From Marsupella aquatica (lineage: Eukaryota > Plantae > Marchantiophyta): a stretch of 64,000 bases of DNA. Both the position numbers and the translations under genes were made by a program. The DNA lies in assembly GCA_973895155.1 (NCBI GenBank), contig OZ316894.1, positions 21,175,867 through 21,239,866 of the forward strand. Reading direction: 5' to 3'. Each line of letters begins with the position of its first letter. Position 1 is the first letter of the stretch. Shown in pieces: positions 3,929-60,750 of the stretch. Under the pieces are notes generated by a model. That model did no database searches. It was not told where the DNA came from and worked only from the letters and a program-made list of their open reading frames with translations.

Positions 3929-4044
3929 TGTTGCAGACAACATTGATGGTTAAGCTTGGGACCAAAAGAGTCAAGGGGGCTTGACAAAAACAAGGTGACA
4001 AAAATTGGAAGACCACTTCAATGTGTTTACCGTACCTGATGCGA

Positions 4045-12532: not shown

Positions 12533-12885
12533 TCTTCCGCAATCAGGACCTCATCTTCCCCAAAAGAGGCACGAGAAGCAATTCCAATTTGATGTTCAAA
12601 ATCTATGAAAGCCTAAACAGTAAAGAGTCGTCACAGGACAAGAATTCAATTCTTCCGCAATCAGCAGGACCTCATCTTTTCCTAAATGTAACACAAGAAT
12701 TCAAAAGCGGCACGAGAAGCAACTTCACTTTGATGTTCAAACCTCTGAAAGCCTGAATCAAATGCGTCGTCAGGGGACGGGAATTCAATTCTTTCCGCAA
12801 TCAGGACCTCATCTTCCATAAAAGTGGCACGCATAGTCGCATAGAAGCAACTTCACTTTCATGTTCAAATCTATGAAAGCCTAAT
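12508..12885. repeat. Triplicated ~120-135-bp unit spanning the PHD-BAH start codon and 5' leader
   Basis: gtcgtca(g/c)..gac..gaattc(c/a)attctt(t)ccgcaatcag..gacctcatctt...gaagcaa...atgttcaaa...tgaaagcct occurs three times (~12508, ~12627, ~12765). Confidence 0.85.
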
Positions 12886-19700: not shown

Positions 19701-21033
19701 GAGTGGATTACAATGAGGTCTTTTCACCGGTTGCTAAGTATTCCATAATTCGGATCTTGTGTCAGCTTGTTGTGTTTTTTGGTCTGGTGATGGATCAGAT
19801 GGATGTTGTTACTGCTTTTCTCTATGGCAACTTGGAAGAGATGATTTTCATGAGACAACCACTAGGCTTTATGAAGAAGGGCCAAGAGAACTTAGTTTGC
19901 AGATTTCTCAAGTCCTTGTATGGATTGAAGCAGTGTCCCAGACAGTGGAACAAGCGGTTTGATGATTTCATGCTTGCTCAAGGTTTTACAAGGATGGTGT
20001 ATGATCCTTGTGTGTATACGAAATCAATCAAGAATGATGTATTTGGTTTCATCATTCTAGTTATCTATGTGGATGACATGTTGATTGTGGTTAAAGATCA
20101 ATCTGAGGTTGACAGTCTCAAGGCGAAATTGAGTGTTGAATTCAGGATGAAGGATCTTGGTAAGGCCAAGACAATCTTAGGGATGGAGATTTTTAGGAAC
20201 TCTGAGACTGGACAGTTGTGCTTGAGTCAAGGCCAGTATGCGAGGAAAGTACTTGCACGATTCAACATGGAAAATTGTAAGCCAGTGAGTATTCCTTTAG
20301 CTTCACATTTCAAGTTATCATCGGCTTTCTCTCCTACGGATGCTGTGGAGAAAGGTCTGATGGCTAAGATTCCTTATGAGAAGGCAGTAGGCAGTCTGAT
20401 GTATTTGATGACTTGTACTAGGCCTGACTTGGCCCTAGCGATGGGCAAGGTTAGCAGATTCATGTCAAATCTAGGGAAGATACATTGGGAAGCTGTGAAG
20501 TGGATTATCAGGTATCTGAAGGGAACATAGGACTATGGATTACTATTTGATAACAGATCAAATAGAACGTTAGTTGGCTATGTAGATTCTGACTATGGAG
20601 GCTATCTGGATACAAGGAGATCTACAACTGGGTTTGTATACACTATTGGAGGAGGATGTATCAGTCGAAAATCTACCTCGCAAAAGTGCATATCTCAGTC
20701 TACTACAGAAGCAGAGTATGTTGCAGCAGCAGAAGCTGCAAAGAAAGCAATTTGGTTGGATAAGTTGATCACGGAGATGGGTTTAGAGCATGGAAAAATG
20801 ACTCTAAACTGTGATAGTCAGAGTGCTCTTCACTTGGTTGCTAACCAGGTGATGGATAGCAGGGTAAAGCACATTGATATCAGGTACCATTTTATCAGGC
20901 AAGTAGTGTCTGATAAAACTTTTGAGTTAGTCAAGATTGATGGAAAGCTCAATCCCGCTGATGCTTTACCAAAGTGATTCCTTTGGAGAGTTTCTCAAGA
21001 CACCGTGCTACTTTACAGGTTTTGCAGTTGTAA
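16760..21033 (+). pseudogene. Copia gag-pol polyprotein interrupted by six in-frame stops and a terminal frameshift
   Basis: Zinc knuckle CWNCGKPDHMKRDC, protease WILDSAC, integrase LWHFRLGH/VHSDVWG/LRSDNGGEY/PQQNG, RT YKARLVAKG/QMDVVTAFL/YVDDM, RNase H TEAEY/KHIDIRYHF. All ORF pieces share one frame. Stops at 17450, 17813, 18305, 18974, 19385 and 20528; probable 1-nt deletion near 20970. Confidence 0.95.
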
Positions 21034-28109: not shown

Positions 28110-31100
28110 TTAATCGTAATCATGCTGTCCTCCAATAAGCTGATTCACGGCAAACAAGCTCTGCAGTATACATCACATGATAACACGCACAAAAAATTAG
28201 CTGCCCTTCAAGATGTCCTAATTGTGATATGCCAATTCAAAGAGATAACCAATACTTTCATCAACTAATTCTAAAACATGAAGACAAATACCTCCAAGGT
28301 TTTATGTTTACTAAACATTGTGAGCTGATGATACTTTAAAATGCACCAACATGACTCACAACTTTTTCTCACGACAAATGAGAGTATACCCTGAACTCCA
28401 TGATTCCACTTAACGGCTCCAATGCATTGATTGTGAATAGTTAGTTCGTTCAAACGTAGCTCAGGGTTTTGCAACTCACTTGTTCAATATGCCTAACAAG
28501 CTTTCCCAGTTTGGAGACTAGAGCTCCATTCCTTCCTGTACCATCTAGTTCACTAGCGCCATTTTGCACATGTGTCTGAAAGATCTTCAAGTGAAGTTTA
28601 GAGGCGTCATGAGCTGCAACGAGAGATGGGCAGGCATCTATCTTTTTTAGCACTGAAGCGATCCTCTTCTCAGTAGAAGTCAAGATCCAAAGTGTAGAAG
28701 CAGCATTGGCTCGGGCTTCCAAACTGGAGCTCTCCAACGATTTTACAAGCAGTGGGAGTGTGCGCTCATTGCATAAGAAGAAGAATCGAGTTTCTCGACA
28801 GAATGCCAAGTTGCGCAACAAGAACAAAGCTGAGCTGCTGGCTGGGACATAGTGTGTCTGCTCTACTGTATCCAACACCTGCGACATAAAAGGCAGTAGA
28901 AAGATGTAAACTCAAGCACACCGGCCTAGCTATAAAACCCCCCATTTAGTTTCTTTGCGTTTGTGCGAAATACATACAAGTTGAATACACGGACATCCCA
29001 GACAAGTACCTGACAATTTTCAGATCCTCTGATTATTATAGGTGGGAGGCATTACCAAATCAAGCATGCTGCCATCAGACAGCCCCTTTGAAAGCATCTT
29101 CTGACCGTTTGGATACACAGATACATTGATCAAAAGCTGCAGTAACAGGTGCTGTCGTAGCACATCGTTGTTGTGCACACTCTGGCGATAGTGTTGGAGG
29201 AATTCTGCAAGGTACTGCTTTCTAAGAAAAATCGCTCTTGCTTTTGCCATGGTCACCAGAATTTGCAGCAACCCAACAGCAAGCGTATATGTTAGCTGTT
29301 CTGAAGGACAACGGAGCACAATGACTGTGGCGTAGTCCAAGAGGCTACCCCCCTTTCCACCTTGGCATATTTGAGTTTGGCAAGCCATGGCTTCTTTGGC
29401 TGCATCACTTTGAGCGGCCAGGTTACATAGTAAGCCTAGGATTTCATTCAACAGATCTTCTTCTGATAGAGCAAAACCCCAAATTAGGCGAATGAAATCA
29501 AATATTCCCTCACCACCGCATGCTTCTGCTGCCAGAGGGTTTTCAAAAACTAGGTTTTTGAGTAAGCGGAAGTAGACTATCAGCTCTCCAAGAAGTAGGC
29601 TACGATGGTGCTCGCTTAGCTTGCCCTGCTTAGCTTTCCGTGACCAAATTGAAGGTCGAACTGGCTGAGTGACCAGTTTTGGTACTTTGTTACAAGGCTT
29701 AGACCTGTGGTTGTTAGAATTTCCCAGCGTTGTGGTAAGGACATTCCTCATAGGTGCAAGGCCACAGGAACCCAAGAGAGCATACGCCTCGTATGCATGC
29801 ACGACCAATTTAGATGGTAGATCTGAATCGACAGCAAATTCTCTTGCCTGAGAGCTGAAGTCACAAGCAACAAATGGTTTTCCAAAAGTAAGAATGGTTT
29901 TCCACAATATATTGATATGTGTGGATGCTCCAACAAATAACAGTCAATAGGGAAACCTATTTCGTACGCATCGGTGCAAAAGGAACAATGGTCTAAATCT
30001 GGATCAAAGCAGGTGACTCAAATGGAATACGGTCAATATCGAACAACAGAACTCCTTAAAGTATAAACCATAATCTTGCTCTCTACATCTGATCGAAGGT
30101 TGTTGACATATGGTGAGGAAATGAAGAAAGTTTAGAGTGTAGTGCAGAAAGCATGACTGCATCAATAGCCCTGCCAAGTCTTAATCGATTCATGTTTCAC
30201 GATTCGGCTTGTTCCTATTCTTCTTGGGGTGTTGCAAGAATCCAACTATCGTCTTCAGCTGTGCGGCAAATCAAGCTTTACTAGGGAAGAACCTAACCCT
30301 GAAAGAAAACATGAGAGCCTACACACAGAAAGCACGTTAATAAAAGTGAACCTAAAGAGCACCCAAAGAATCGGACAGATTTCCTCAGTCAGAGGAGTAC
30401 CTGAAAGAAATAAGATTTTGCAGCGCGACACCAACGGTAAAGAGAATAGTGTAGAGAAAAACGAGAATGTCTCCGTTGTGAGAGACTGTGTGTTTCCGAC
30501 CCAGCTCATGTATCTCCTTCATGATCAATAAAAACGAGTTGTATAGCTGCAACCATGTAGCATACATTTAGGCTATCCGCACCATTCATAAAGTCCATTT
30601 TATATGCAAGGGTCTTTGCCTGGAACTATCCGGACAGAAAGAATCTCAAAGCTTCCTGAAGGTGATATTGATGGAGATCAGCTGACCTCACGTGATGAAG
30701 GATAGAAGACAGCAAAACTTACAATAGGCGCAAGATGCAGCGGCTTTTGATTCCCAACGCTGGAGGTAGTCTCCCAATAGTCCACTCGATCATTCTCTAG
30801 AACAGCTTTTGCAAGATTCTCCTCCGAGAGAAACGTGGCTAGAAGTGCACAAACTGCCAACTGCACCCTACGTAATAATACACTCAGAATCCTTCCAGTG
30901 TCATTCTGTCCAGCACTGGGTAGGTCCTTTATGAGTGGTGCCCTCGCAAGGATTCGTGAAATGATTCTGCACACTCCAGACTTCCCCAAAATTTCACCAA
31001 GAGATTTGTGAAACCCAGACTGGAATGATAAACCACCTCGTAGTGGCCTTCCTTGAGATTTTCCCTCCCTCAAATTTAAGGACACTATGTCACTAACTCG

Positions 31101-34100
31101 AACGTGATTGATTGCTCGATGTGGTGGTGCGGCAGCTTGTAGCAATTGTGATACCACAAGATTAAGAGCTTCTGAAACATGGAATATAGCTTCAAGTCGC
31201 TCATATTCTGTTACACTATAGAGGTTTTCTTCATGGTAACACTCCACCATATCGTGCCCTTCTATCCTGGCGCCTCCAGATTTACTATCCCGGTAACAAC
31301 CGGCCATACCGAGAGGTGGGCAACCCAAACAGTAAGACAGAGCACAAAGAAGTTTTGCAACAACAAATTCGTTTTGAACCAAGGACTGAATTTGGACATC
31401 TTCTTGCTGGGAAAGAATGCAAATAATCTCTGCTATATACCCTTTAGCACTACATATGTCGGGGGAATGCACGCACTTTGGTACATTTTCTCTGGCGTTT
31501 TCTGTTCCAAACTCCAAGTACTCGATCATCAAATCAAATGCACATGGGTTTAGGGAAAGTTTGCTTTTGATGAAGCCTAAATCTGAAACTGTCAGCTTGA
31601 GGATCAGCTCGAGCAAAACACGATGGAAACCAGGAGTGCCATTGCTCTCTTCTAGCATTCTGGTAAATACTGACCAGAATTTGTATCTTTGTAAAGCAGC
31701 ATTAACACCAAGGCTGTCGATTCTTTCAAACCCAGCAGGCATTGAATTCCTTTCCACAATTGAAGATAATCGTCGTCCACTGCTCCAAATAGTAGTTGAG
31801 ATGAGAAAGCGCAGAGCCTCCTGACGGACAGCATAACATTCCTGGGTGTTCAATATAGTGTGCACAGCTACGTCTCCAAGTTCTGGCCAATTTTGCTCTA
31901 GCAGGGCCCTTATTTTGACAGTGACTGGAGATGCCAAGACTGCCAGAATTCCAAATCCCATCCCTCTAATGGTTGCTTCTTGATCATCCAGAAGTCTCGA
32001 AAGCCAATACGTAATTCCAGTAGATGACCAGAGTTCTTCCCAAAGATGAGGGGGGACACAGGATGTGACTGACCAGAGACAAGACACAATCTCACGCACT
32101 AAATACTTGTGTCTAAGCGAAAGACAGTGATGGGAGTGAAGATGAGCCATGTGTTTGATCAAAGGTAATACTACGTCAACCAGCTCGGTTCCAATGGTAT
32201 CCCACAAACTGTCTCCATTCTCCTCCATGCTTGCTGATTCTTGTTGCCGTATCTCATTCTCACCATGTAAGTTCCTTAGATCACCATCCCCTGGTTCGGA
32301 TGAAGCCTCACTTGAACTTTCCTTGTCCTTCTGATGTGAGTATCGTGGCGGATAACCATCACTCCTCAAAGCAGCAGCAATCCCCTTGGCAACAAGTGAA
32401 ACACACTGCACTGCCAAGACACAGCAGAGGTATGGAGCGCTTGGGCCTTTTATAAACTTCGAAAGTAGCACTGGAAGCAAGCTTGTACCCTGCAAAACAT
32501 GCCAATCTAGGACAAATTTACCTACACAATCTAGGAAGGCCAGCAATGAGAGTAAAGGTATTCCAGAAATATATTCAGGACCATAGGCACATTTGGAGTA
32601 AATAAACCTCATTGAAAAAGGAACCTTGGAGCATTCTCTGAGCTAAGGTTATATTGAATCGCTGCTCAAGAAATCCAGGGAGTCATAAAGCTGTTGAGGG
32701 AATCAAACCTTTGCCAGAGCAACTGCTGTCTGACCGAATAAACTTGCATCTCCATGCTCTTTTGAGCAAAGTAAGATATCAACAAACAGCCTCAAAATAG
32801 TGAAATCCATATCACATGCGGGATATCCTTCAATTAGGACAATTGCATGATGTAGATTTGCCCCTGAATTGAAACGAAAATATCGAACTCAGTACAATTA
32901 CATGTGATGTATGATGTGAACAAAAACAAAGAAATGCCTTTGGCGTTCGTCTTCAATACTGTATCCCAGCAATTTTGTATTCAACAATCATGAACAGCAA
33001 AAGCAGTACCAACTCTTGGAGTTGGACTCTTGGCAAGTATGGGTAGGAGAATCTGCTTGGACACCATTGTCATGAAAAGTAGGCCTGAGTAGCCTGAAGA
33101 TTTTGAGCTGATGATAATCTGTACAAGCCTAAGTACCTGCAAAAAAGGATTTCTCAAAAGCGGAATATATTTTCTTCACATGCTCAGCAATTTAGAGACA
33201 ATAATGACATTCATATGCACGATGCTTTCCATCTCATTAGCTTCATGTCTATTTAGCACTATGTCCGATGTTACGGCACAATTGGACAGAAAGTATTTAA
33301 TGCTGTGACAAGAAGAGTCTGTCACCTTCAATAGTTGTGCAGATTCCGCTAGACTTGAAGGAATTCTGGTCAGGAATCGTTGAAAAGTCATAACCCAAGA
33401 AGATCTTGCTAACATCTTTGCTGCCTTCACAGGTACCATCAATGTTAAAGCCATTCCATTCTTGACTGAGCACAAATGCTGCTGACTCCAGGACTTCCGT
33501 TTTTTCCCTCCGTTACCAGGACAATTTTGTGGGCAATTGAGCTTTCAGATCTCACTTGTATGTAAATTTCTAGTCATGATTAGAGAATGTTTGCTTACTT
33601 TGGTTCTGTCTATCAAACAAGAAAATGTTACACGTCTTAGCTTCGGTAACAGTAGGAAGACATCGAATTTAGAGGCCACTCCCTGGACACTTGAAGCTCT
33701 GCTCACAAGGTGGCTGCTTAAGAAAAAGCACTAAGAAGTTTTAAAGCCAATTGAACCGGCACATTTACTAAGATGAAGCCCTCTCATCCTATATCTCAGC
33801 TCACTTCTCCACTCCTGTACATAGAAGTGTTTTCTAGGACTGAAATTTAATTGGGGTGCATATCGTGCATTTCAAAGAGACAAAGAGCTTTCTACTAGAA
33901 GTGTCTTTTGAACGATTTAGCACGTACAAGCTTGCGCTACAAAATGTCCTACAAGAAGACTCACCTGTGGATGGCGGAAGCATTGAGTTTCAAGTTCTTC
34001 CAGAAGCCGAGTCTCCGATCCCCAGCACTAAAATTTAACCAGGTCCTTTACTTAGTACTCCTTCCGTCGCAGTTAAAGCGGAACACTTGAATTAAACTTA

Positions 34101-37100
34101 CAAGTCGTAAAATGGTTGAATCCTTTTTTTAAACTGAGGGAATCTATCTGCGTGCCAGCCATTGTTAGACTAGAAATAGCCCAATGTAGAAGACTATTTA
34201 TAGGCAGGCCTAGCGAATGAACAAAGTTGCTGAAGTGACTTCAAAATGAAATTTTAATAATGAAAATCAAATCCCAACTTTTGCGAACATGCATGGCCTC
34301 ATAGATGGTCAAGAAGAGGACATACAAGTTGGGGATCTGTTAGTAACTTGAGAAGCTTTTTGACTGTTATATCTGCGTGAAGCACAGAAAGACATGCCAT
34401 CGCTTGCAGCTCCACTGTTCGCAGTTGGTCCCCCGCCGATGCAACCCTGCTTTCAAGTGATATTAGCAAGTTCTCAGATCCTCCTGCAACAGTTACAAAA
34501 TGAGTGTAAGGAGATTTAGTCCCCAAAACATATGGCGTTTTCTATACTTCTTGCAACACTGCGAGGAGGGCTGGCGAGGAGGACCCTACCCTTGAGGAGA
34601 ACAGATTGAGCTATGACACGGTGGATTAGCTTCTCATCCACCAGGCTTTCAGCAGAACTTTTTACTGCCGGTCTCACGGCTACACAAACTACCCTGCATG
34701 GGAAGAGATGTCCGCCGACAAATGGGAAAGGGACAGCAATCCGGATGTCACGATCAGTCGAATGAAGGTTTGCACCAATAATGTCCTTCGTTGTTGAGAA
34801 CGGATACTGATTGGGATCATGATCAAACACGATCTGCACATATGGATAATTACTCAGATTTGTCCAGTTAAAGTAGAAGCTTACTTAAGCCATACTCAAG
34901 CAGTGGAAAAGACAATCATATATTACATATATATATTGTAATATATGTAATTACAATATATCTAAGTACTGAAAAGAATCGACGTAACTTCTGAACGTCT
35001 AATTAGAGCTTCGGAGGGATGATTTACCTCCTTCAAGCCCCTGAGCAGCAGATCCGAGCTAAAGAGAGTGAAGGCAAGAAGCAATGCCATGTCTTTTCTG
35101 ACACATTCAAAAGGATGGAACACAAGAGGGATGAGCAACCATAAGACTTTGCATGAGTCTCCAATCAGCAAGTCTCGCAAATTTGGTACTCCGTACGAAG
35201 CTGAAGCTGGTGCCAATCTTGCGAGTAAACTCAAGCATGCGATTCCCAAGTCAGTAGGACCTGTACCAAGACTGTCCATCTTCTCAGGACTACAATGTCT
35301 ACGCCTGTCGCTGGATACATCAGCAAAACCTTCTGAAGGCTTGTCCCCCATTCTCATCCAATCAAAAATCTCTACGATCAAAACCTTGAAGAGCTCCTCA
35401 TCGTTATCCAAAATCTCTCTCAAAGATTGATCTTGAATAAGCCATGTCAAATGCTCCACTGCCGTCTTTCGGATGGCTTCAGCTACTGAATGAGACTTGA
35501 ATATACCTAGCAGTTCTTCCACTTTCTTTTGTCCACCTGCTGGAATTTCACGTTTTTCACCTCTTTCCTCTTTTTCGGAAGGTCCAAACGCCATGGAGAA
35601 CAATGTTGCCTCCTTGAACTTAAGACACTTCTGAAATGGATCTTTAAGACATTGGAATGGGTCGTCTGGGGGAATGTCAATAGATCTTTGAGAAAAACCG
35701 TTTGAATGTAGCTCAGAGCTCTTCAATTTTCTCAACCACCAGCAAGACTCCTCCAAGGTGCAAAACTGTCTCAAGATCATCAATAGCTCAGTTGAAACCC
35801 TGTAACGCTCAGAAGTGCAAGAGCTAAACAAAGACCGTAAGGTACATGAGAGTTGTGCCCATTCAAGTCTTAATTTGTTCCCAATCTGAGAACTTCGTTC
35901 TTTCTGCAAACACGGCTTGGCGGCAAAGAGGATGGAATTCAATTTTTCTACGATTTGCAAAATATCCGGTGAGCGGTATGCACTACATGCTATCCATGGA
36001 TACCCAGGAAAAAGATACTTGTATTCAGTGTCAGATATCTCTCCAACCAGATGTTCCAAGAGTACGGCTGATTGCTGCACGTAGATACAAAGGCGTACTT
36101 GCTTAGCTTCAGCAGCCATAGTGAGCACACACAGCGGCTCACGTTATCAGCGCGTGATAAATGAAGCACATAGAATTAAAAAGTAAGAAGCTCGTAAAGG
36201 AAATCATAGTTTCCAAACTTAGGATTCTGAAAAGATAAATTGCAAGAGCTAGTCCAATCAATAAACTTCATGAAGACTTTTTCATGTAACACCGCTCTAG
36301 AAAAACATGTCAATTCTTGGAAACTAGAAGATTCTCACAACGACAGCTACATTTATTCCTCTGGTCAAAGAAAGTATTTATAACCTTGCAAGTTGCTGTA
36401 TCATGCAGACCAGTTGCTATAATCTCACCCATGATGGAAGTGCCAAATATGAGCAATCTGTGAAGGACACTCAAAGGTCGAAGTTCTCCATTTCTGCAAT
36501 GAAACATGTGCTCGGACTCATCGCTACCAATGCAGATCCTGAGATCCCCCACTGCACATGCTTCTTCGCAACCGGATGCTAATTGAGGCTTCAAGTGGCT
36601 GTGCTGCTGAGCCAGCCATCTCTCCTTTGAAGATACCTCCAACAGGGAGTCATACGCAACTTGACAGATAGATGCTGTGGTGTGAGAAAGGAGCAGCCAA
36701 ATCAAGTTTCTAGCAAGCCCAATGACAGCTTCTAGTGCGACACTTCTGGACGGTTGAATGCTGCCGTCATCTTTTTCACTGCCCATCTGATGTTTTGCAT
36801 TTCCTCGACAAGCGTTGACTAATTCTATCCTGAGGACATCCGGTATAATATGTAATATCCTTGGAATCAGATATCTGTGATTGAAATAAGAATAATTGGG
36901 GACAGCTTGAATCATGCACTTGAGAAGCATCTCTGTATTAATCATCATAGATGCATTAAGTCGCTTAGCCTTCCAATGTGCAACGGCTTCTTCAGATGAG
37001 GCTAGTTCTTTGACAAGAACATGAAGAGTAAACGATGCCTCTGTTGCACGCGTATAGCTGTCGAAAAATTCAGGACTTAAATACTTCAAATATGGGGAAA

Positions 37101-40100
37101 TCTGCATCGCATTGCGGTATTTGACGTTAGTATGAAACAATATAGCATTGACACAAGTCCTGACAGATATTTCATGGCTCCAACTGTGCTGTGATCATTT
37201 AATGGATCCTATGCGCGTGTTCATTGCTCTACTCGTTGATATACCTGCGACCACTTAGCGTGTAAACTAAAAAACCAGAGACATGCGAGAAATCAAGGAG
37301 GAGAACAATTACACTTTTGTGTATTCCAAAGGTACACTCGGCCAGAATCAAATCCCCAGAGAGTGTGGTCAGGGCCTTCACAAGTACATGAGGTAATAAG
37401 CCTGCGACATGAGAGGGTTGAAGTAAACATAGAAGCTCTGCTGAGAAACTGAGCACCCTTAATACCGGGAAACAGCCCTGAGCTCGTTCATAAAAGTCCT
37501 GTTTCGTTGCAACATCCATACACATAGTTTCCAGGTCTTGAGAGTTTCCATTGACGCTTTGCAGCACCTCAGAGAGAGCATGAAAGTACTGAGAGAAATG
37601 TGCTTGCACCTGCATTGTTACTGGTCAATGGATAATATGCATAGGAGAGGCATTGAGGAGCAGGACTAAAATTTACCAGGAGGAGGAAATATTCAAAAAG
37701 CTCTACATGCATACCAAGAGTTATCATCATTCAGGACCAATCCCATCATCAATGCCATAAGTTGCCATCGAAGTCGACATAAACTTGAACAACATGAAAT
37801 TCACACCAATTGCCAAGAAGTACATTTATTCCATGACGGAGTTCAGATTCAGCACACATTTTCCTTTTGAACTGATGAACAGATGTATGGTTGAATTTGA
37901 AAAGCATTTTGCTGCATTGATGATTGTTGTTGCTGTATAAATATTCAGTGATGTAAGCTAGAGTAGAAGGGTGGGATCAACTGGTGCTGTATAAACATCA
38001 TGAGAATAGGCTTGTTCTGTAGAACAAAACCATAAACTAACATGAACGACCCAAAATATTTCACACTCGTGTCACCAGGTCAGAATGCACACCTTTCCAT
38101 CCAGAGATTTCTCGACGGGCGGCTTGAGAAGTGGCAGGAGATCATAGAGGATAGCAAAAGTCATGTCCCTATGTCGGTCATTCACCAGTAGAGATATAAG
38201 TTGCAATGCAACCAAGTGTAGTGTACGACCAAGAGAAATGACCGGCTGGATGGTATCCCTATTATCTAGTTTTAATTTATCGACTAAGTGTAAGACTTTC
38301 TCGTCGTCTAGAGCATCATGTGTAGTCGGTTTGAGATAGACAGGATAGCTGCATTTGAGATCCAATCCAGACTTCAGAAGAGATGAACCTCCACTATCTT
38401 GCAGTCCATGCGAAGGTGACTCATTCAGGTGAACTTGAAGGCCGGCTTCCCTGGAAAGTTTCAAAGCGGCCTGCAAAACACACCCTTCCGGAATAATATC
38501 TGAATCATTCTCACCAGCACTTATGACAGCAAGCCTAAGGGCAGTCCCTGAAGCCTCCTCCTTAGACTCTTTACAAATTTGAAGCTGAATTGGTACATAT
38601 AAGGAAACATTGGCAATCACCGATCTACTGTAGCAACCATAAACATAAAGGAATCCAGGTGGTTGTCGGATGAGATGGTGGGACCTTGATTTTCCGCACA
38701 AGTTCCGCAAGAAACTCGAACACAATCCGTTCCAGGTTACTGTCCGTTATCGTTTGAAGCAACACAAATGCATTCTGCAAATTTCACGACCAACTCATTA
38801 GGTACATACGGCACTAGTCTAGCATCACACCTTCGTGAAGTAGCTCTAGATTTTTGTTTCCTATGGCTTTTTGACAGACCTACGACAGCAATTGTTCTTC
38901 GTCAATTTATCACGTTGAATTGGTTTCAGGCGCCAGGAAAAGGACACTAGCATTCTTGAATAAACATACTGGAGACAATACGTAAGGGGATCATCCCACA
39001 CGGAAAACTGATTCAATCCTGCATTCTGATTACTGTTACAGATACTTTCAGGGAATCTACAATTTTGTCTTTGGCAGTCGATAATAGTGTTTTTACACAA
39101 TCATGAACTAAACATCGTCTTAATGCTGGCGTGGAATCTCAAACCACACGTAACCACATCTTGATTAGTCAGCAATTTATTTATTTAGTATTCGGCCCCC
39201 AGGGCAATTCCATTATGGGGGTAGAATTCCATTCACCTGCAGAATGGAATACTTCTGGAAAAATGCCTCGGGATGGAAGTCAAATACAACCGCTTCCCTG
39301 AGCTCTTTCAGAGCAGACCGGAGAGCTTCCCGATTATCAAGTTTTTGTAAAGAGACTGCAGCACGCATCCCTTGGTCAATGAAGAGCATGCTGGCATAGA
39401 AATACTTTTAAAAACTTTGTCACTCGTGAAATTTTAACCTCAATTCTATCACAGCTACATGGCAGAATTGTCACTTTGTACACACTGCACTCTCCACTTT
39501 CTGGGGTTCCGTAGAATTCAAATGGATTCATTCATTCTCTGTTCCAAAGTAGACCAAGTTCACTCATTGAGAATTTACTATTTTATCGGGAAAACTGCAG
39601 AAATCAATTGGTTCATCCATTCTTATCCCAACTACTGTGCAGCGTTGATCACAATAATAATGGAGGGAGGAATGATGTTGAAACTTCTAACTCACCATTC
39701 AGGTTGACGAGATACATTTCGTCACCCTCCTCCAGATCAATGCATGGGAAGGTCGGCCCAATATGATCTGCACCAAATAAATAACAATAAAGAGTATGAT
39801 GATATAAAGGCGATCAGTGTACACAGCTCCCAGGAAAATTGAGAAGATGTTGTTGGGGTTCTAAAGCACTATCATCAGTGACTAAGTTAAAACGTGGACG
39901 AATGTGAGGTACTAAGTCTGAAGGTGCCACAAAGTCTGAAGGGCTTGATCTCTGAAACACTGGTCAAGGCTATCTGAATTATTGAAGGCACTAATACTCG
40001 TTAGCTGGACTCTTCCTATGCACACTCACGAGTTCAGATCGCAGAGTTGATTTAAAAGCAGAGGTTGCTGCCATGAGTTTTGGGACCTGTTTGCGACACA

Positions 40101-41873
40101 TTTGTAAATATGTGATATTCCGGTGGTTGCTTGAGCAAAAAGTTGATTTGGGTGGGTGCTACTGCTTTTTCCTGGCCTTCATTGGATGATGGCCTCGGTT
40201 GAAAAGGTTGACTAGCGACAGGCTCGGTGCATGTTGCAGATGCTGGGCTATCTGCCCGACTCCCAGATGTAGGAGCACACCTGCTCATTTCCCCGAGCGG
40301 GAAGCCATCCATTTGCAAACGACGGTCCCTGTTCCCCTTCGATGATGGCTCATTTCTTTCAGGGATCTCAATAGTCAATGGGCCCGGTTTACTTTTCACT
40401 TGACAGTCATCGGACTTATTCCGGTCTTCCTGTCTGCAATGACCCCGTTCAGCAGCATTATCAAGAATAGGTTCTCCTTCCTGGCACCGGCCGAATGGTA
40501 ACGGGAGCTGAGTTGCTGGTACAGCATAACCCATTCCGGTGTCTCGAAGATACATTGACCTTGAAGATTCGTCCACCTTCTTATTGGTTGGCTTGAGCAA
40601 GTTCTGCAGAAGTCCAGCAACATAAGGTACGATTGTATGGCAGCAGTCGGATTGAAACAGTTCCATAAATTCCACCGCGCCAAGATCGATGAGTAGCTTT
40701 CGATGTACATCATCCTGCAGACAAAAGGTTGTCAATCTTCAAACTCCGCGAATCTTGCGAATTACAGTACTCCCGACTGCGCGGCTTTCCCAAAACTTAA
40801 CCATCAATGTCATTGAGTAGCAGAGATGACATTCATGGTGGAGATCTCATAGGTGAGAACATTCGACTAAAGGCTGTCGTCGGCATTGGTCATCGAAACC
40901 ACCAATCCTTCGAATCTGATGGCTGCTTTGAAATTACAAAATTTAAATTCACGTTCTTTATTGAGAAGTGACCGACGTTAGTAAACCGACTTGTGGAAAC
41001 ATGCCTGCGCGATCCTGCTAAGCATGCTCAGAACCAAAATCTCGTGAGAAGGCGATGGCAAGTTGAACCATTCCAAGAGTGAACGGAGCAGCGCTTTTGT
41101 GTCTTTCTCTGGATCACAAGTGGAGAGTATTCCACTGGTCAACGCACACTGCAATTTTCCCAGCGCGCTGCGGCGAGTGCACGGCGATGGATCCCCTGTT
41201 GTCATCAGAGAAGGCAGTGAGATGCTATCTGGTAGTGACTGTGATGTAAATGCTCCTAAGTGAGATTTGATTATGCAGTTTTACGTTCACGGAAACAGAT
41301 TATCGTATGATTAATGAAAATGAAGATCAGTTAAAAATGATATAAAGAATTGTGTACAGGTCTGAAATTGGGGTTGTGTCAGCACGCTTGAGCTTTTACG
41401 GAAGAGTGTTGTGACCGATCAGTTCGTTTCTAACAATACACATGAGCTACAGTAGCTAAGTGTGCTGATAGATTGAATTGGGAATCAGATTCATCGTAAG
41501 CTGGATCTAATTTCAAATGGTTGACCATAGATCCCTCAAATAGTCTCGCTTATTAGAATGTGAGAACCCGTAGGGCTTCAAAAGCCTTGCCTTAGACCAT
41601 CGAATGCTACCCCAGTAGCTCGAAATTTGACCAACGATTAGTCCTCAAGATAAAATTCAAATCTCTTGGATTACAACTCTCCTTACAACTCCTGTAAATG
41701 GATAATTGAGGTGCCTTTGGTAATAGTGAGTCGTCACTTTGGAGAGCAATGAAGCAGGAAGCAACGACGGAAATGGGCGGGTGTTGAAGTGAGGGGGCTG
41801 AATGCTTCAAACCGAGTTCAATTGCGATGGTGTGTATGGGATGCAGCAATTCGTCATTCGAACTCTGTTCCAT
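28110..41873 (-). CDS. RTTN: Rotatin (RTTN/Ana3) homologue, ARM/HEAT-like centriole/basal-body protein; roughly 18-19 coding exons (first 41873-41813, last 28160-28110)
   Basis: N-terminus IELG|DPSPCTRRSALGKL...LLEWFNLPSP...LSRIAQ|DDVHRKLLIDLGAVEF, then FPCIDL and DFHPEAFFQK, and C-terminal LLRNLAF...NAASTLW. These match recalled animal rotatin motifs (LLEWFNFP, LVDVGAVEF, DFPAEIFLQR, AAALW). Start context GCCATGG. Confidence 0.88.
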
Positions 41874-45205: not shown

Positions 45206-48200
45206 TCAGTTACCAATGTGTTCTGTTATTGTGACGTAGACTGTGGCAATGAATATGATGCATCCAAATACAACAATACAAACACCACCAAAGACTTGAC
45301 GACATGCTTGTCTTGGCCTTCTCGCGCTTCTAGTCAATGCTGGCTCCTCTTCTAGTATGGATAATTGAGAACTGGCAACTGGGGAATTCTGGGAGCCCAA
45401 CAAAAGCAAAATTCCTGGAATAATGAACACAACCATGACTCCTCCCGTTGCACCCACAATGGAGAACACCTGCACAGTCAATTGGCAATATCAATATCAT
45501 CAGCATCAGAAAACAAAGTTGTTTGGGTAAGCTAGTAGAATAAAAGGCCGCCATAATTATGCAGCCAGGTTTTTGACATCACTCAACCTGAACCATAGTT
45601 TTCACTAATGAAGAGTTACTTAGTGCCTAGGAAAAATCCGGAATTGTGGGCTAGCTTATCGAATCTGGTGATCATCGAAAGATCTAGGCTTGGGAGATGA
45701 TATCTAGTGCCGACTACAAAATTTGTAACAGATCTGTTGCCTCAACACTAGTCGAGGTTCCTCTATTTGCAGATACAAAAGCACACCAGTGGAAACCTAT
45801 TTGCCAAGACGACCAAATGTAATCACTGGTGGGGATGCTCTCCCACACTACTCCTTTCCTTAAATACTCACTTAAATCTGCGAGCAAAATGCATAATTCT
45901 CCAAGAGTGCTTGCCTAGATTCGTTGCACACATAAACTCCCATTTACATATTCCTTACAAATATTTTCACAGAACTTTTGGTATGTTTCAACAAATGATC
46001 CATGGTTTTGTGTCTTTCCAATGCAAATGCATATATCTTCAGTTGAGGACTCTGGAACTCAAACTCATTAGTCCATGGTACGAGAAGATGGAATGTCTCA
46101 TTCAAGTATAACTAGGACTCATTAGAGCTAAGAACCAATGCCATAATGATATCGGATCTCGACCAGCTCATGGTCGATGGTCCAAATCAGCAAGGAGCAA
46201 AAGTGAGGTACCTTTCCAAGATCAGTGATCAAGAGTGCAATTCCAAGTGTCAAACTGAAGAAGCCAAGTGTTATGAGAACATGGCGAGTCCATGAAAAGT
46301 CACTCGCAGGCACGTTTGCCACATACTTGACAGCGTCATCTATGATCAAGCGAGCAGGATGATTCTGCACGGGGTAGCATACCAGTGCAACCTGTGAACA
46401 CAACGATGTAGAGTTCGTGTCATTGCAGAGTCCATCCACGCTCAGATTGAAAATTCCAATGCTTGGAACAAAATGGCTCTGTATCTACCTCTGAAATTTC
46501 CCAGTCAAGTAGAGAAATTAACCTTTCCAGTCATGCTGTCAGCAAAACTAGTACAGCAAATATTACCGTCTTCGTTCAAAGAGAGGTGGAGTAATCCATT
46601 TTTTCAACGCAGAATAATTGCATGGTAACCATCGTTTGCGAAAAATGGCTACCCCGGTTAGAGATGACAATTTAATGATCGCCCAAGAGACGAACAATTC
46701 AGTCCTCTTAATAGAGAAACTTTGACAGCTGTCATAATTTGTACATGTCATTTCTTTGGTAAGGAAACAAACAGTTCTGCGAAGTGGGTGAGTAGCCTTT
46801 TTGAAATTTCAATAAAATGAGACACACATAATTTTAAGATTCATAATTTGGCAAGGAAATTGCACAATACAGACAATATTATACAGTACTAATAATACCG
46901 GAAACATGGGAATGAACCTTGCAATACTAAATGGGCTTGGAGGCACACATACCAGAGCCATGCCAATGCGGGCAATGTTCATGAAGAAATTTCTGTTGCC
47001 AAAGCTCTTCAACACGTCACTTTCCACATCTTGAAATATGAGGTAACCGAATTCTCCAACCTGGAAAGCCACAGCTAACAAAGTCATGAAATGTCACAAC
47101 TCGGATGAAATTCATTTGTTCAGTTGAAACTACAAATTCTTTCTTCTTCACTCTCAGATGGCAGCCTCCCAATTATTACTGCTGATCTATAGTCTCCATA
47201 ACTCCATTCACGATCCAACGTGGACGAGCGACTCTCGCTTAACTCAGTGATGTTTTTTAACTTGAATTCCATGATTGTGAGTTCATTGACACTTAGTTTA
47301 TTGATGAGTTTAGGATTACAAGGAACAGTTTCAGTATTTTTGTCTTGGATGGGAAATCACTCGGTTACAGGAATCCTTACTCGCATGTACAGAAAGGCAC
47401 AGTCACACCGAATTGAAATTGAGTCATGAATAGTTTAAGCAGAGGGAGGGACATCCTTACACTAAGGGTCAAGCCTTTCGGTAATGATAGGCTCAAATCT
47501 GTTAGGAAAAGGGATTCATAGCGTAATTCAACCCCTGCTCAAATTGATCAAATTACATTCCGGATCTGTTCTGTAGTAGTTTGCTGACTTGAAGGCTACC
47601 AGAATCTTTGTTTTTCCGTTCTGTCGCAGGAGCTTGCACATTTCTTGTACTGTGACAATTCCTTGACTTAATACTGGAATTCGAAACAAACTCACCAAGG
47701 AATATCCGATGAAACATATTGACATAGACAAGAAGATAACGCCATCCATTCTCGTGAGCCGCTCCGATCTGTTTCCCTCTGTAAGCATCTCTGAAATAAT
47801 CTCCTCGTCCAGCACTTGCTCTTCGAGGGGATCTTTGCGACGTTCAAAGAATGGATGAGGATGTTCGGCAAGCTCCGCAAAAATAGGGACAACCTGCCAA
47901 ATTGATTGTCTGGTCAATCTAGCACTTTGGAGAAGATTTGACTTTCCCTCAGACTGTAAGGTTCAATTTCAAATGACTGAGAGCACAGAATTCATATTGA
48001 GTGTTCAGGAAAGATCGAAGAGGAGAAGAATCGATAAGAGCACCAAGGCACAAACGAGACAGCAAGAAAACGGGTGATTCATCGGGCTAAACGTGTTGCC
48101 TAAGCATGCCCACATTAGTACCCAAGATCTGCGTACGTTTTTGGTAGTCCCGTTATTTTCGCCCTCGTGCATCTTAGCTGTAAAAATTCCTAATACGTAT

Positions 48201-51200
48201 AGAAGTGCAGCGACTTCCTTACATGCTAAAACAAACTATCCTGGGCCAAAACAAGAGGTAACCTGAATATGACATTGAAAAGCAAACACCACAATGTCCA
48301 GAATGATGAATGCACGCATCCCAGCTGCAAAGATCAGCACCTAAGATATCCAAGGACACGCTACCCATTAGTGAAATTGGAAGCACAACCTTGACCTTCC
48401 GCATCAACAGTTGGAGAAGGACATACTACACAATACAACTTTATAAGCATTCACAACACAAAAAACAAAAAACTCTGAGTGGTTGTTGGGTCACTTGAAT
48501 CAACTTAGTATATGACTTACTAGGGAAGTTTTTTCGTACCATATTTTTCACAAGATATTCACAACAATTTCTTGAAATTTAAGGGACAGAGTAAACGAGG
48601 TCTCACATCGGTGGGAAACCCATATCTAACAATTTGGAAGGATCCGATTAAAACCAACGCCACTGTCAGATAAGTGAGCATGACGACCTGCACAGCCACC
48701 ACCACCATCAGTGCGCGACTTCAAAAGCCCCAGCACACAGCGACTTTCACTTTCTTCTTCTGTAAGAAACACAGAATAATGCCAGTCTGTATCACCCATG
48801 GAGCGCCTCTTACATTTTATGAAGTGCGTGGCACAGGAGGAATCTAGGATGCTTACTGAGATCATGCTGCTATATTTGAGAGCTTTAAGTGTGGTTTGTA
48901 AAGACAATGGCAAGATCACCACGAGTCCAAAAAGTGCTATCAAGAATCTGCGCGCACACAATAAGAAAACCTTCCAGTAAATATGCAGGATAATATGGCA
49001 TGACAAAAGGTCTGTGAACGAGTCGATTTGTAAGTCCTCCAGTCACATCTAGCAATAATTTGCAGTCGTAATGCACGTTGAGCCTTCACGAATTGCAACA
49101 GAAACATTCTAGACGAAAATTGAAGAGAGTTTACCTGCGATTCCCCAATATCGAATTTTCTCCAAATTTCTCAGCAAAAATTGGTGTAAACACATCACCT
49201 GACCAACAAGAAAGCCCAAATGCATAATGAGAAAGTAATATAATGGTGATCACCCGACTGCACTCCAGACATCTACTTCACAGAATCCCAACATAAAAGT
49301 CAGTAGCATTTGATAGTTCGTCACCTGAAATGATGATGTATGAAGTACTGGCACCAATCAACAGGAAGAGCATGACCACAGAGGTGACGACAGCCATTTT
49401 GGTTCCGAGCAAAGTGCACACAAGACGCTGGACAATTCACAAGTATTCAGTGCAGGGGACCATGCAAATTACATCTTGATAAAATCTATCATCATTGCCT
49501 CTTAAAAGTCTCCAACTAGGGGTTCCAAGAACTTTGTTATTAATTCCTCCATTCATCCACGTCTATCTTGCCGGTGCATGATTCGAGGAAAGTGTAGGAA
49601 TCCTTTGAGCTAGAATGAAGCCCTCCGTCTCAAACTAAACCTGGAAGGTAGATATCGTTCTAATCTGAAATGTGTGCAAAGCGGCGATGAAAGGGTTGCA
49701 ATGATGGAAGATGAGCAATTGAAAGGTGTGTGAATCAAAACTCAGATTCAGACTAAAAATCATTTGAGTCGCTAAGAAATTGTCGACAGTATCATTAGAA
49801 TAGCAACTATAAGTGATGCAAGACAAATTTGAGCTGACGTTTTCGTGAAGCGTTCTGCGTTATGGACATCAAAGCTGTCTCTATGAATTACATAGTTCTT
49901 TTGACATTGCCGAGTAGTTCTTACACTAAGCTGTTTCCTGATCTCTGTAGCCCAAGCACATTCATAGAGGTAATGTCTTCTCGATGTACACTGTTTCCCT
50001 ACAAAATTCTTAAGTGCTAGTCATTCCCGTTTCTTGCTTACAAAAAAAGTGTTCTGCAGGCGAAAGGACGCAGCGACATGGGAAGTTGACTTTACTTCAA
50101 AAAATAACATACTGCGATCATCCAAGAATAAATCAACCAAGAAGACACAGTCTTCACTAGGTAGGCATGGGAAACCATAAGGTAGACAACCAGGGCATCC
50201 CAAAATGAGACACATTTTCAATATGGAGGTACATTTCAAGGTGAAGGACCTTCGTGAGATTTTATTCACCAGCATTGCGTGACCAAAATCCATGCACCAG
50301 TCAATGATTATTGACAGCACGCATGAGTAAAGCTATGACTCTCTGGGCCATCTCAAACCATGATGTGCTTCAAACGTTTATTAGAGAAGTCCATGAAACC
50401 TGGAAGAACGCAAGACAGGAAAGAGGTTCGTTTCGTCTTTATAAACGCAAGTTCACATTCTATCTTCGAGCCATCACAACAGTACTCTGCAGAAGGAGAG
50501 TACCTGTGATGATCAGATAGGAGATCATCGCTCCCGTTAAGAAAGTCAGCATCGTCACTGATGTGACTAAAGCCATTCTGGACCCCAGCACGGAAAGCAC
50601 CATTTGCTGGAACAATTCCCTGAATTCAGTGCTCAGACTACGATACAATTTCCTCATGAGACACCATGTACAAATCCTCACAAATTGTTCTCTATATAAG
50701 TCTTAACCCGATCCGCTAATTGGCATCATTTCCATAATTTTAAATGAAACGTTCAGCCTAGTCCTGACATACCCAAGAGCAAGAGCCTATCAAGAATCAC
50801 TCGCAGTTAACAGAAGCATCCAATCTCTATGGTCAATATTTTACATTACGGTCTTCTGGATCCAGAAAGCCAAACAAAACCTTCCACATAGATTTAAATA
50901 GTTTTTCCATGCCACCAGACATCAAGCAAAGAGAAGACGGCTAAAGAAGAGGATTGGGCAATAATGAGGCTACGAACACCCTTTTCAGAGCTGGTCAAAC
51001 ATTGCCACAAGAAGCTTCAAATGTCAATTATCCCTGAAATCTGATAAGAACAGAGAATGTCTCCAAATCCCAGGATTTGAGGATATACCTGATAAGATTG
51101 AGAGTTATGCTTTTCTGCAACTCTAACGAGGAGGCAGAGTGCAAAAACCTCAACAATCCATATCAAACTAGTAAAGAACAATCCTCCCACCAGACCAGTT

Positions 51201-51587
51201 TGCCTGCACACCACAAACTAACCTTGTCAATGTACTTCATTGAGCAACATAGTCTCCACAGACTATCTTCGTCTCCAAAAATAAATACCCGCTGCATGCA
51301 AAAACTGTTCCATTCAGGAGGAAGGAGCCAGGACGAATGAGTGCGGTGCAATATGACGTAAACACGGACCGAATGTGGACTATCACGAGCAGATAAATGC
51401 ATCCCGGTGGTATTTTATAAGTAGCGGGTTCGGAATAGAGGCTGTACACACCTGAATCCGTAAGGGAATGAGAGTACTCCAGCTCCAATTGCAGCATTGC
51501 ACATATTGAACACAGATATCCAAGGATTGTCATTTTTGCCAAACCGTCTACTGATGCCCAACAATGGCACCTTCTCGGATTGGGCCA
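45206..51587 (-). CDS. Amino-acid transporter, Aa_trans family (AVT6/SLC38A7-like, probably vacuolar), multi-exon
   Basis: MAQSEKVPLL (acidic dileucine motif)...SVFNMCNAAIGAGVLSFPYGFR|QTGL...SYQ|...ILPLSL...LKYSS...FAFQCHIQ|VVPIFAEL...GYLIF...CYPVQNHPAR...VFSIVGATGG..FIIPG. GT-AG introns. Confidence 0.92.
49325..49427 (-). other. Transporter alternative exon 3B (103 nt)
   Basis: gtccag|RLVCTLLGTKMAVVTSVVMLFLLIGASTSYIIIS-G|gtgac. Confidence 0.88.
50504..50606 (-). other. Transporter alternative exon 3A (103 nt)
   Basis: ttccag|QMVLSVLGSRMALVTSVTMLTFLTGAMISYLIIT-G|gtact. Confidence 0.88.
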
Positions 51588-51791
51588 TCCTCTCCTCTCC
51601 TCTCCTGAAGTTCTCTAAATTACAACGCTACAGCTCGAAGTTGAAAATCCATCATATCCTCTCCTCATCCACTACTCTACTCAAGCGATCTAGATTACAA
51701 AACAACCCTTCATCTCCTCTCCTGAAATTCACGGTCACCATATCTGATCTGATCTGCTAACGCAGAAGCCAGCTGGAGCCCAAATGCCGGT

Positions 51792-56933: not shown

Positions 56934-59866
56934 TCATTGCATATTGTGCAATCTTGGTTCGGGCCAGCTTGGAATGTTCGCTGTCGCCTCATTCACTGCT
57001 TTGACCAAGGTCACCTGTACTAACACAAGTCATACACAAGAAATGAAAAGGTTTCTGAGGATGATCATATTACAACAGCTACTCAACACCAAAAAGTTTT
57101 ACGAGTTGCATGAATAAAAATCAAGAATGCGAACCTCGAAAACTTCTAAAAAAATCCGGAACGTCAAATAGCCATCTTATGCAGGTCATTTGTTTTTGGC
57201 ACAAGAAGTCACAACAGTTCCAATGTTTCTCCCGTCTAGAAGAATGTATAGTAGCATCTTTTGTCGCTTATCTGAAATAATTGGCGCAACTAAGGTATTT
57301 GAAATCTGAAAAACTTCAGTTTACAGACCGAACAGGTTAGCGAAATCCAAAATTTTCAGAACGCACCACTGTTTCGGGAACTCCAGGAGGAGGCATAGGA
57401 AAATTTTTGGGAGGATATTTTTCTGAGAAGGACCTCTTGTCAAACCTCCACTCCCCAATCGTCCCATACGTCAACTCACCCTGCAGCACATATCCAGAAT
57501 CCTCCCCATAATGTCAGCATACGGTGAAGTTCAACAATCGTACCCAACTACCCGTCCAGAGAAATGAGGTTTCTGGGTAAATGATACTGATAAGGGATGA
57601 AAATGCGGACTCTGCTCAAGTTTAATGTGCAAAGTAGTAGAGCTATTGGTCAAATTCACCAAACATATCTGGCCGGTCCCTTGTGCATAAATAAGTGAAT
57701 TCAAGTACCATCTTTCAAACTCGATATTACAGGGGGATCCGCATACTTTAGCTGTTGCACCTATGGAGGATACTACCTTCATGTTATAATCACATCCATA
57801 AGAGTAGTGAATGATATAACCGTTCTTGATTGCTGTGTCAAACGGAGTCTGGAAACAGACGGCAATACCACAGGATAAGACGATGGACTTGCAAAGCCAA
57901 ATTACCTTCATTGTGTAATCACAGCCATATGTGTAGTGAATGATGTACATGTCTCGTAGTTCAAGGTCCCAAGGAGGCTGAAATCAAACAGCAGAGAAAC
58001 TGTCATGAGTTATGACATTTATCTATAAAAGATATAAGACTTATACTTTGCAAATTTCATGAGTTGGGACAGAAAAATTGAAAACTCCCCCACGCACAAT
58101 TCAGAAACCCTAAGATTGGAACTTGGTAGCTACCGCGCCTTCTGTCAAGGTCATTATTACCTGGAGCATGAAATCTTTCCTCAGAATGTGCTGAACACCA
58201 TGAAGGGCAGATGCTGTAGCATAGGCGTACCTGCCATAGAGTCCACACGATCTGTTAACGTCCCTTACTTCCGTGGCACTCTATTCGAAGTCATTGTACA
58301 ATTATACTGTCTATCACAAGCACAGTTCTAGAGATCAATTCCGCGCGGATTCGTAAAAACTACAAAAAGCATTCAAATCCAATTTGTGGTCTTACATTTC
58401 CAGCACCCAACCAAATTCCTTATCAGCTTCTGGATCGTCTTTCATGGCTAGCGAGGTATTGTGCCAGGTTGGAGCAATCTTCATCAGCTGAGACTGAACT
58501 CACCAAAGATAAAACCCAATTTCCCCGGATCAGAGCGAAACTCGCATGAAGAAATTGGGAGACCGAATGCTTGAAAATGCAATATGGCACACTCTATGTT
58601 GACATTAGGTAGATGAAGTTCGAGGGAGACAGAAACTCGAGCAACACCTTCTTGATGATGACTGGCGAGTTGCCGATCGGGTCAACGTTGGAGATTGGGC
58701 CCTTTTCGACGGGATAAAACCTCCGCATAATTTTTTCAAACCGTTTGGGCTCGATGTAGAAAAAAGGAAACCCAGCAGGCATGTCATCTGTAGCCAAATT
58801 AGGCAGCGCCCTTATGAAAATGTGATCCGGTTCGGCCATCATAATATACCTGACACGACGGCATTGGGGAGCTGTTAGATTGCAGACAGGCCCGCTTTTA
58901 ATTTCCTAACTACGCAAGCAACCTCAAGCAGGGGTCATCCAATGATGAGACGAAATCAGCAGTGACTTCAGAGATTCGACAAATTATGTCATGTCTTGAG
59001 CCAAAAATATGAGCTGAATGCCAGGCATTGCTATTTCAAACACTCACTCTTCTTCAATGTTCGCCTTTTCTAGCCATTGAACAAACGCCCACGGCCGGTT
59101 CAAAACGACATATCCCTGCACAATCAAACCATCCACTGTCTCGATCGGGTACGGGTATGGGTCTATCCAGCTTACGAAATGGCAGTTTCCGCCGATGTGA
59201 GCTGATCCTGATTTTGGTTAATTTCTTTGGTTCCGTTAAACCCAGCTGAGCAGGTGAAGAAACACAAGTCTCATCCACTCTGCAACAACGGAAATAACTA
59301 AGGACGGAATGGAACATTTAGAAATTGCTTTGGAGCGACATTGCAAACAAGAAAGAACTAGACGAAGATAAATAGAAACGCTCCCTCCAGGAAAACATCC
59401 TCAGCCGTTGCGAAAACGAGGAACACACCCGGTCTTGGCCCGGAGGCAGAGGATCCACTATGAATGTGGGAATTTCATCCATCACGTCGTCGGGTTTGCC
59501 GGAGTGCAAGAGTCGGGTGAACCCACCCATTTCGGAATCCGGATGATCCTTCAATTTCTTATACCAGTAGTACATAATCAGGCACTGCCACCGGTTATAT
59601 AGCGACTCATTAACCGTGACCACCACGTGATACAACCTCTTTTTCTTCGGTCCCTGCTGCAAACGCCTCAAATCGCGCGGCATTTTCACTAGTGGATCGA
59701 AGTACCTTTCGGAATTCTCGTCATCTAAAACCGAATTAGAAAGAGCACCACGATCAGACAAGTTCAACTTCGCCCTGTACATGACGATCATCGACGCCGT
59801 GTTGTACGTGACTACACAGAGGGCAAACGTGACCACCAGCAAGAAAATGAGCGTCGTCCGCCTCAT
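56934..59866 (-). CDS. HPAT: Hydroxyproline O-arabinosyltransferase (HPAT/RDN1 family, GT95), multi-exon
   Basis: N-terminal TM, YNRWQCLIMYYWYKK, MGGFTRLLHSGKPD, GYVVLNRPWAFVQW, MAEPDHIF, DPIGNSPVII, FGWVLEM|YAYA, IIHYTYGCDY, GEWRFDKRS, VNEATANIPSW. Confidence 0.96.
57777..57848 (-). other. HPAT alternative exon B (72 nt)
   Basis: ttccag|TPFDTAIKNGYIIHYSYGCDYNMK|gtagta. Confidence 0.88.
57906..57977 (-). other. HPAT alternative exon A (72 nt)
   Basis: tttcag|PPWDLELRDMYIIHYTYGCDYTMK|gtaatt. Confidence 0.9.
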
Positions 59867-60750
59867 TGTGCCGAAATCTTTCCTCTTCTCTACGCGTTCA
59901 AATCACTTCCTTCCCCTGCTACTCCCTCCGCTTCTCTCCCTATAAAAACCCCCACGACCTCCTCGCGAGCTCGTCTTCACCTTGTCGCACCAATAATCGC
60001 CCCAATCCACCGACACAGCCGTCTCTCAATCAATCATTCACAACTGAATCCATCGCCACCGCCCTCGCTAAATGAGCCCAAACCTACGCCCCTTCTCTGC
60101 TGTTCCTCCTCCTCCTCCTCCTCGCGCAGAATTCGAGCTCATCCATTTCTGCTCTCTTCTCAAACAATCGTCCCGTGGGTTCTCAAGAATCACGTCCATT
60201 TCTGCTGGCTCAAATGCTCTCTCGTCAAATCGACCTGTCGGATCTCAATGTCTTTATCGTCCCACTGTCTTCATCGTCCCGGGCGAGAAGCAGGTTTCCA
60301 TCGCTGCCAAGACCTTCAGACCTTCAGACCTGATGATGAGGAGGAGGAGGAGGAAAATGTACCGAATTTGTTCCAATTTCGGAATGCGCGAGAGAGACAA
60401 TCATGAGCTGGACTGAGATAACTCTTCTGAGATCGAGCCCGCATTAAATTTGATGGAGGATTTCCTCGATTCCGCGTCGGCGAGCTGCTGCTGCAGCTCT
60501 GTTCTCCGACCGAACCCGCATTTGACGGACGATGCTTTCGGTCTCACAGAAGACATTTCTCTTCAGTCTTCAGTCTTCATTCCCTTCGAAAGTAAACGTA
60601 CCGGTTTGTTTTGTGATGGGGCCAGTGGGGCCAAGCCGAGCCGACAGTGGCGGACACCGTTGGCTCCGTACGGACTCTCCAACGGTATTACGTTAAAACA
60701 GTGAACCTGTCTAAGTGCAGGTTTCCCGGGATGACACCATCGAGTAGCAC

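Follow-up and report, generated by a model that had tools for sequence, protein, structure and literature searches.

Alternative splicing in plants consists mostly of intron retention, with either-or exons the least frequent class. Among transporters of the APC fold, CAT-2A and CAT-2B arise from mutually exclusive exons, and NKCC2 carries mutually exclusive copies (A, B and F) of a membrane-helix exon, exon 4 of SLC12A1, that tune its affinity; NKCC2 differs from the liverwort exon pair described here in being a vertebrate ion cotransporter whose 96-nt, frame-neutral exons encode TM2. CAT-2A and CAT-2B are closer to the liverwort case in that two isoforms come from one amino-acid transporter gene of the APC/LeuT fold (SLC7A2), and their affinities differ roughly ten-fold through residues outside the first shell; the segment exchanged is the TM8-9 intracellular region of an SLC7 protein, whereas here it is TM3 itself in a PF01490 protein known from sequence (PMC5803215, available part).

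Homologous mutually exclusive exons of the type collected by WebScipio and Kassiopeia are alike in length, phase and splice sites, are homologous to each other and encode one structural element (PMC3228551, PMC3923563). The accessible part of the Kassiopeia report lists 99 internal candidate exons predicted in Arabidopsis, none of them then annotated as mutually exclusive (PMC3923563), and in the liverwort Riccia fluitans either-or exons are the rarest class of event, 169 of 19,045 in a count that takes in non-homologous pairs too (PMC13642808, available part); these figures agree with the rarity in plants that a first-pass annotation of the present locus had claimed. FLM/MAF1 in Arabidopsis and DAL19 in Picea are plant either-or exons that alter a functional region of the protein. 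The FLM exons are unequal (19 vs 15 aa), the second being traceable only in MAF1-3 (PMC3266260), and DAL19 uses alternative first and last exons (PMC6243048); as far as the accessible portions of both sources go, neither gene has an internal pair of equal length that is conserved between classes. The pair that we describe shares length, phase and splice sites, homology and a single structural element with the catalogued type, and differs from it in belonging to a bryophyte and in being apparently common to two liverwort classes.

The window, by which we mean the whole 64-kb stretch of Marsupella aquatica DNA analysed here, contains an amino-acid transporter gene of 11 exons on the minus strand, from 51588 to 45206, with GT-AG borders at all introns. 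The model was built by hand and checked against homologues. Exon 1 (51452..51588) starts with ATG and encodes an N-terminal tail, with an acidic dileucine-like motif, and TM1; exon 2 (51089..51203) is constitutive, encodes TM2 and ends in phase 0. Exon 3 exists in two copies, A (50504..50606) and B (49325..49427). The constitutive exon 4 (49135..49198) begins in phase 1 and supplies the end of TM3 and the next loop, followed by exons 5 (48857..48947), 6 (48607..48687), 7 (48263..48340), 8 (47696..47893), 9 (46953..47060), 10 (46212..46391) and 11 (45206..45469), the last running through the stop codon. A candidate exon at 47498-47381 was dropped from the model. Elsewhere in the genome lies a partial, diverged copy of exon 8 with its intron, seen as a second contig in sequencing runs X1, X3 and X4 that aligns at 47721-48098 with lower identity and frame-shifting gaps.

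Both copies of exon 3 are 103 nt long and free of stops, with CCAG before and GT after, phase 0 on entry and phase 1 on exit, and they are identical at 18 of 34 residues and 61 of 103 nucleotides. Each covers a loop helix and most of TM3, A being of the ancestral type (Thr18, Phe22, Met27) and B of a derived type (Val18, Leu22, Ser27). The first-pass annotation had described a homologous pair with this length, these phases, AG/GT borders, no stops and 18/34 identity, and all of this was reproduced from the sequence; its exon coordinates were also correct, the next exon starting at 49198. The two copies thus agree in the three respects, length, phase with splice sites, and homology, by which PMC3228551 in its accessible part recognizes such exons. 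When the Calypogeia homologue P0003 was searched against the window by tblastn, every other exon of the gene was matched once, and a profile of the segment found exactly two matches in the 64 kb (iE 1e-17 and 6e-14). Only exon 3 of the gene is doubled in the window, and two tandem genes or a doubling in the assembly were rejected as explanations.

In the remainder of the window, a gene for hydroxyproline O-arabinosyltransferase (HPAT) lies upstream of the transporter (about 57500-59900, minus strand). There are also remains of a Copia-type LTR retrotransposon (gag, integrase and RVT_2) split over several frames (about 16750-20530, plus strand), long frames that encode a PHD finger and DUF7797 (about 8290-12550, minus strand), and several long open frames of 224-654 codons that are probably exons of one large gene (about 28450-40740, minus strand), among which the six tested gave no Pfam match.

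The homologues P0003, P0042 and P0005 score 204-210 bits against the PF01490 Aa_trans profile, whose gathering cut-off is 25.6. By sequence, then, the gene product is a PF01490 transporter (AAAP; APC superfamily, LeuT fold), with amino-acid transport itself predicted; the label SLC38A7/8-like carried by its homologues comes from names in the source databases alone. The best protein match is from Calypogeia fissa, 83% identical over 435 columns outside exon 3. Named plant proteins among the 34 matches at E<=1e-20 belong to liverworts, mosses, one zygnematophyte and Volvox, with no vascular-plant name among them; this branch of transporters may be absent from vascular plants. N-terminal residues 5-10 (51576-51559, minus strand) fit the consensus for acidic dileucine sorting motifs, which hints at a vacuolar location; the motif occurs in P0003, P0004 and P0006 as well and is absent from Marchantia P0005.

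Reading frame separates the possible transcripts. Spliced by coordinates, an mRNA with A alone or B alone is 1419 nt long and encodes 472 aa, with its sole stop at codon 473. As 103 nt does not divide by three, including both exons or skipping both shifts the frame, as the first-pass annotation had anticipated, and brings an early stop, at codon 154 with A and B together and at codon 108 with neither. Its further claim of mutual exclusion is supported by this outcome and by two annotated isoforms in Marchantia polymorpha that differ only in the segment. The gene there, Mp2g12390 (MARPO_0026s0132), is homologous to the gene in the window and has two 468-aa isoforms, a (P0042) and b (P0005), known here as annotated protein records, that exchange the same 34 residues: they are identical at 453 of 468 positions and all 15 differences fall within the segment. 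The Marchantia isoforms differ from those of the window in that a and b are also unlike at Tyr-4 (Ser/Gly; positions are counted here from the tyrosine at exon position 30), where A and B are the same. The Mp2g12390 protein accessions, BFI07472-4, are adjacent, and in MarpolBase v7.1 models at odds with Iso-Seq were curated by hand, according to the accessible part of 10.1101/2025.03.30.646155, which does not name this gene. The b isoform is the full-length model in every Marchantia annotation series listed (PTQ, BBN and BFI accessions), which suggests that it is not rare in Marchantia. Shorter Mp2g12390 models begin inside exon a, inside exon b, or beyond both, and look as frame-shifted transcripts would. 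A Riccia fluitans model (P0007) reads an a-type and then a b-type segment in tandem, with 13 extra residues between them; both exons are consequently present in the Riccia genome, in the same order as A then B. The sharing of the pair with complex thalloid liverworts, of which the first-pass annotation was unaware, strengthens its case.

A search for RNA from the window's organism found none, and the four sequencing runs that match the window behave as DNA, covering introns and giving no splice joints. A second study provides contigs of genomic DNA from a close relative; in these A and B have intact AG/GT borders and no indels are listed, so that the presence of both exons in a relative, which the first-pass annotation had proposed as a check, was found. 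Contigs from run X3 carry one change in A and one in B, and those from X4 no change in B and at least three in A; three of the four changes in the relative are non-synonymous, one being Ile31Thr, the sole change in B. These few changes are too few for showing selection. Protein searches yielded no full-length B-type isoform of the leafy-liverwort orthologue, and none of nine candidate short fragments carried exon B with its flanks. The missing isoform and RNA would fit a dead copy, with B a pseudo-exon never spliced in here. We regard this as very improbable: B is open, of exact length and bordered by AG/GT, it keeps Gly8, Gly25 and Tyr30 despite near-saturated silent sites, it is intact in the close relative, and its counterpart is annotated as an isoform in Marchantia.

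The location of the segment in TM3, claimed by the first-pass annotation, was upheld by profile alignment, a structure model and fold matches. The model of Calypogeia P0003, built from 121 sequences, reached pLDDT 89.9 (an earlier one from 18 sequences was poor, at pLDDT 60) and matches LAX3 (Z 38.5) and SLC38A9 (Z 34.3, rmsd 3.0 over 362 aligned). The exon spans residues 86-119 of this model, on helices 84-92 and 94-131; it comprises a short helix in the loop and, of the long third helix, the first two thirds. In the profile alignment, exon position 30 falls on Y204 of zebrafish SLC38A9 and Y158 of human PAT1, and exon position 26 on F154 of PAT1. In the available parts of the sources, SLC38A9 Y204 touches arginine (10.1101/288233), PAT1 Y158 and F154 bind substrate or shape the pocket (PMC13473456), and the TM3 contacts of VIAAT are Y221, T217 and E213 (10.64898/2026.09.12.751155), which by spacing rather than alignment correspond to Tyr, Tyr-4 and Tyr-8 in exon numbering.

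A and B are the same at Tyr (position 30) and at Tyr-4 (position 26), and they differ at Tyr-3 (Met/Ser), Tyr-8 (Phe/Leu) and Tyr-12; Tyr-8 is aromatic in 72 of 108 rows of the wider family. The proposal of the first-pass annotation that the two isoforms have different specificity or kinetics consequently needs a qualifier, as the two TM3 positions known to contact substrate in relatives of solved structure are shared and any functional difference would have to come from neighbouring positions. From helix spacing we infer which way the TM3 side chains face. On this basis the downstream copy B would have become less bulky at Tyr-3 (Met to Ser/Gly) and no longer aromatic at Tyr-8 (Phe to Leu), and these losses would make the pocket roomier or looser on its cytosolic side while the tyrosine anchor stays fixed. 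Homologous mutually exclusive exons do tend to vary close to functional sites (PMC7954323, accessible part), and outer-shell changes between A and B could shift affinity, as CAT-2A/2B shows to be possible.

The shared Tyr30 and position 26 would suit two proteins that are near-equivalent, both exons being spliced alternately with B a minor isoform under relaxed constraint, or one that tunes expression through unproductive splicing. The lower conservation of B than of A across liverworts (17/34 vs 27/34) points the same way, as do the Calypogeia orthologue models, which are of the A type only. We consider near-equivalence rather unlikely, in view of the reading frame that B has kept at dS near 2.3 with dN/dS near 0.17, the same derived residues recurring in B-type rows of both liverwort classes, and the full-length b isoform in all the listed Marchantia series.

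With regard to the age of the pair, Sphagnum-type genomic loci spanning the region have one copy in five of five cases, and in all four that were measured the single exon is 103 nt long with the same intron positions; mosses other than Sphagnum were compared as proteins only, and hornworts lay outside the comparison. Tandem duplication of one ancestral exon is supported by this single exon, by the 18/34 identity and by the alike intron ends of A and B. A metagenome scan gave 12 loci, none from a liverwort, one of which (L009) ends short of the exon. Two segment matches in locus L001 were rejected as an exon pair; they belong to two separate members of this transporter family, both without introns, which lie in tandem at 2869-5104 on an unrelated contig.

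Divergence between A and B is high, with dN 0.39 and dS 2.3 (NG86) and four of 12 four-fold sites identical, and these values indicate that the two copies are old and both constrained. In a tree of the constitutive part (23 rows, leaving out truncated models and algae except Spirogloea muscicola), the window gene and Calypogeia form one clade (98/100), apart from a Marchantia/Riccia clade, and Mp2g12390 is 66% identical to the window gene outside the exon. A is identical to Calypogeia P0003 at 32 of 34 residues and to Marchantia a at 27 of 34. B matches Marchantia b at 17 of 34, a at 18 and P0004 at 22; it diverges fast and by sequence is no closer to Marchantia b than to a.

The b-type rows nevertheless share residues. 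Among 26 rows compared (7 b-type, 12 a-type and 7 outgroup), column 18 is Val in 7/7 b-type rows and Thr in 12/12 a-type and 6/7 outgroup rows, and column 27 is Ser, Gly or Asn in 7/7 b-type rows vs Met or Leu in all 19 a-type and outgroup rows, counts that are inflated by the assignment of 4 of the 7 b-type rows by likeness. At column 22, Leu is found in window B, in Marchantia b and in the second Riccia segment, and Phe or Tyr in 18 of the 19 a-type and outgroup rows. A tree of the 34 columns splits the b-type rows from all others in 62% of bootstraps. By AU tests on the segment, one origin (p 0.49) and a separate duplication in leafy liverworts (p 0.36) are both acceptable. The latter value, for a clade of A and B confined to leafy liverworts, and the equal distance of B from Marchantia a and b fit an exon doubled independently in leafy and complex thalloid liverworts, so that the pair would be real but younger and its common residues convergent; the alike intron ends could likewise mean a younger copy or gene conversion. 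That history is unlikely in our judgement. One exon would have had to double on two occasions and in the same order, the second copy each time gaining Val18, Leu22 and a small residue at position 27, and A and B are close to saturated at synonymous sites. A single origin of the pair seems likely to us, and with pairs in Marchantia and Riccia and a single copy in Sphagnum the pair is probably liverwort-wide and old. Paralogues show a related pattern, a leafy-liverwort clade having b-type segments (P0014/P0038, P0004, P0006) and a Marchantia/Riccia clade a-type ones (P0015, P0010, P0008); gene duplicates may have fixed one exon each, the a-type in Mp2g08750 and the b-type in the Calypogeia paralogue.

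How one copy is chosen may depend mostly on frame. The early stops of transcripts with both exons or neither lie far upstream of the last junction, and nonsense-mediated decay would clear such transcripts; a frame shift on double inclusion coupled to transcript decay is a known policing route (PMC6071210, available part). The acceptors of A and B may also compete through a common element at their intron ends. Acceptor comparison showed that the intron end before A (50607..50632, minus strand) shares a 9-mer at -26 and its last ~11 nt with the paralogous intron end before B (49428..49453, minus strand). None of the gene's 55 acceptor pairs is more alike (this pair scores 15, the second-best 10), and 7 of 5000 random window acceptors reach that score. 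Such likeness despite near-saturated silent sites suggests either a constrained common element or later conversion.

Other mechanisms were considered too. For docking-site/selector pairing in the three flanking introns, 28/40, 38/40 and 99/300 shuffles were as good, and no docking site in these introns paired with both copies above shuffles; a scan of intron 4-5, one of five regions scanned, was equalled by 13/300 shuffles. Inverted repeats in the region are short and imperfect. U2/U12 incompatibility was rejected: the gene has one U12-like 8-mer, at 51086, which is altered in the close relative (51082), and a U12 branch motif nowhere. Steric exclusion is unlikely, given the 1076 nt of the A-B intron and a B branch-like motif near the intron end.

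We found no publication under the gene ids Mp2g12390 or MARPO_0026s0132 and none on the exon pair in the open-access literature, although the event list of Riccia fluitans (supplement of PMC13642808, seen in part) may contain the gene. Both isoforms are already in public annotation, so that the novelty lies in recognizing a pair conserved across liverwort classes.

The gene thus carries two intact tandem TM3 exons. Taken together, these data make it probable that the exon was duplicated once in an early liverwort and that each mRNA takes one copy; the two resulting amino-acid transporters, of 472 residues each, would have the anchoring tyrosine in common, with a predicted difference in affinity or substrate range. 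More tentatively, the duplication could lie at the root of most liverworts, some 400 million years back, and have made a still-active switch that alters which amino acids a probably vacuolar transporter moves, by reshaping TM3 in its cytosolic half while one tyrosine stays fixed; we think this extended reading somewhat less likely than not. If it is true, few internal mutually exclusive exon pairs known in plants would be as old, and plants would have a counterpart of CAT-2A/2B. A duplicated exon pair of equal length that both leafy and complex thalloid liverworts have kept is a rare example in plants of splicing that diversifies a protein and is deeply conserved. Because the pair is present in Marchantia, where the exons can be deleted and the isoforms assayed, three questions become directly testable: how plants enforce an exclusive choice of exon, whether gene duplication can take the place of splicing and the reverse, and which positions in TM3 determine selectivity in this uncharacterised bryophyte branch of the AAAP family.
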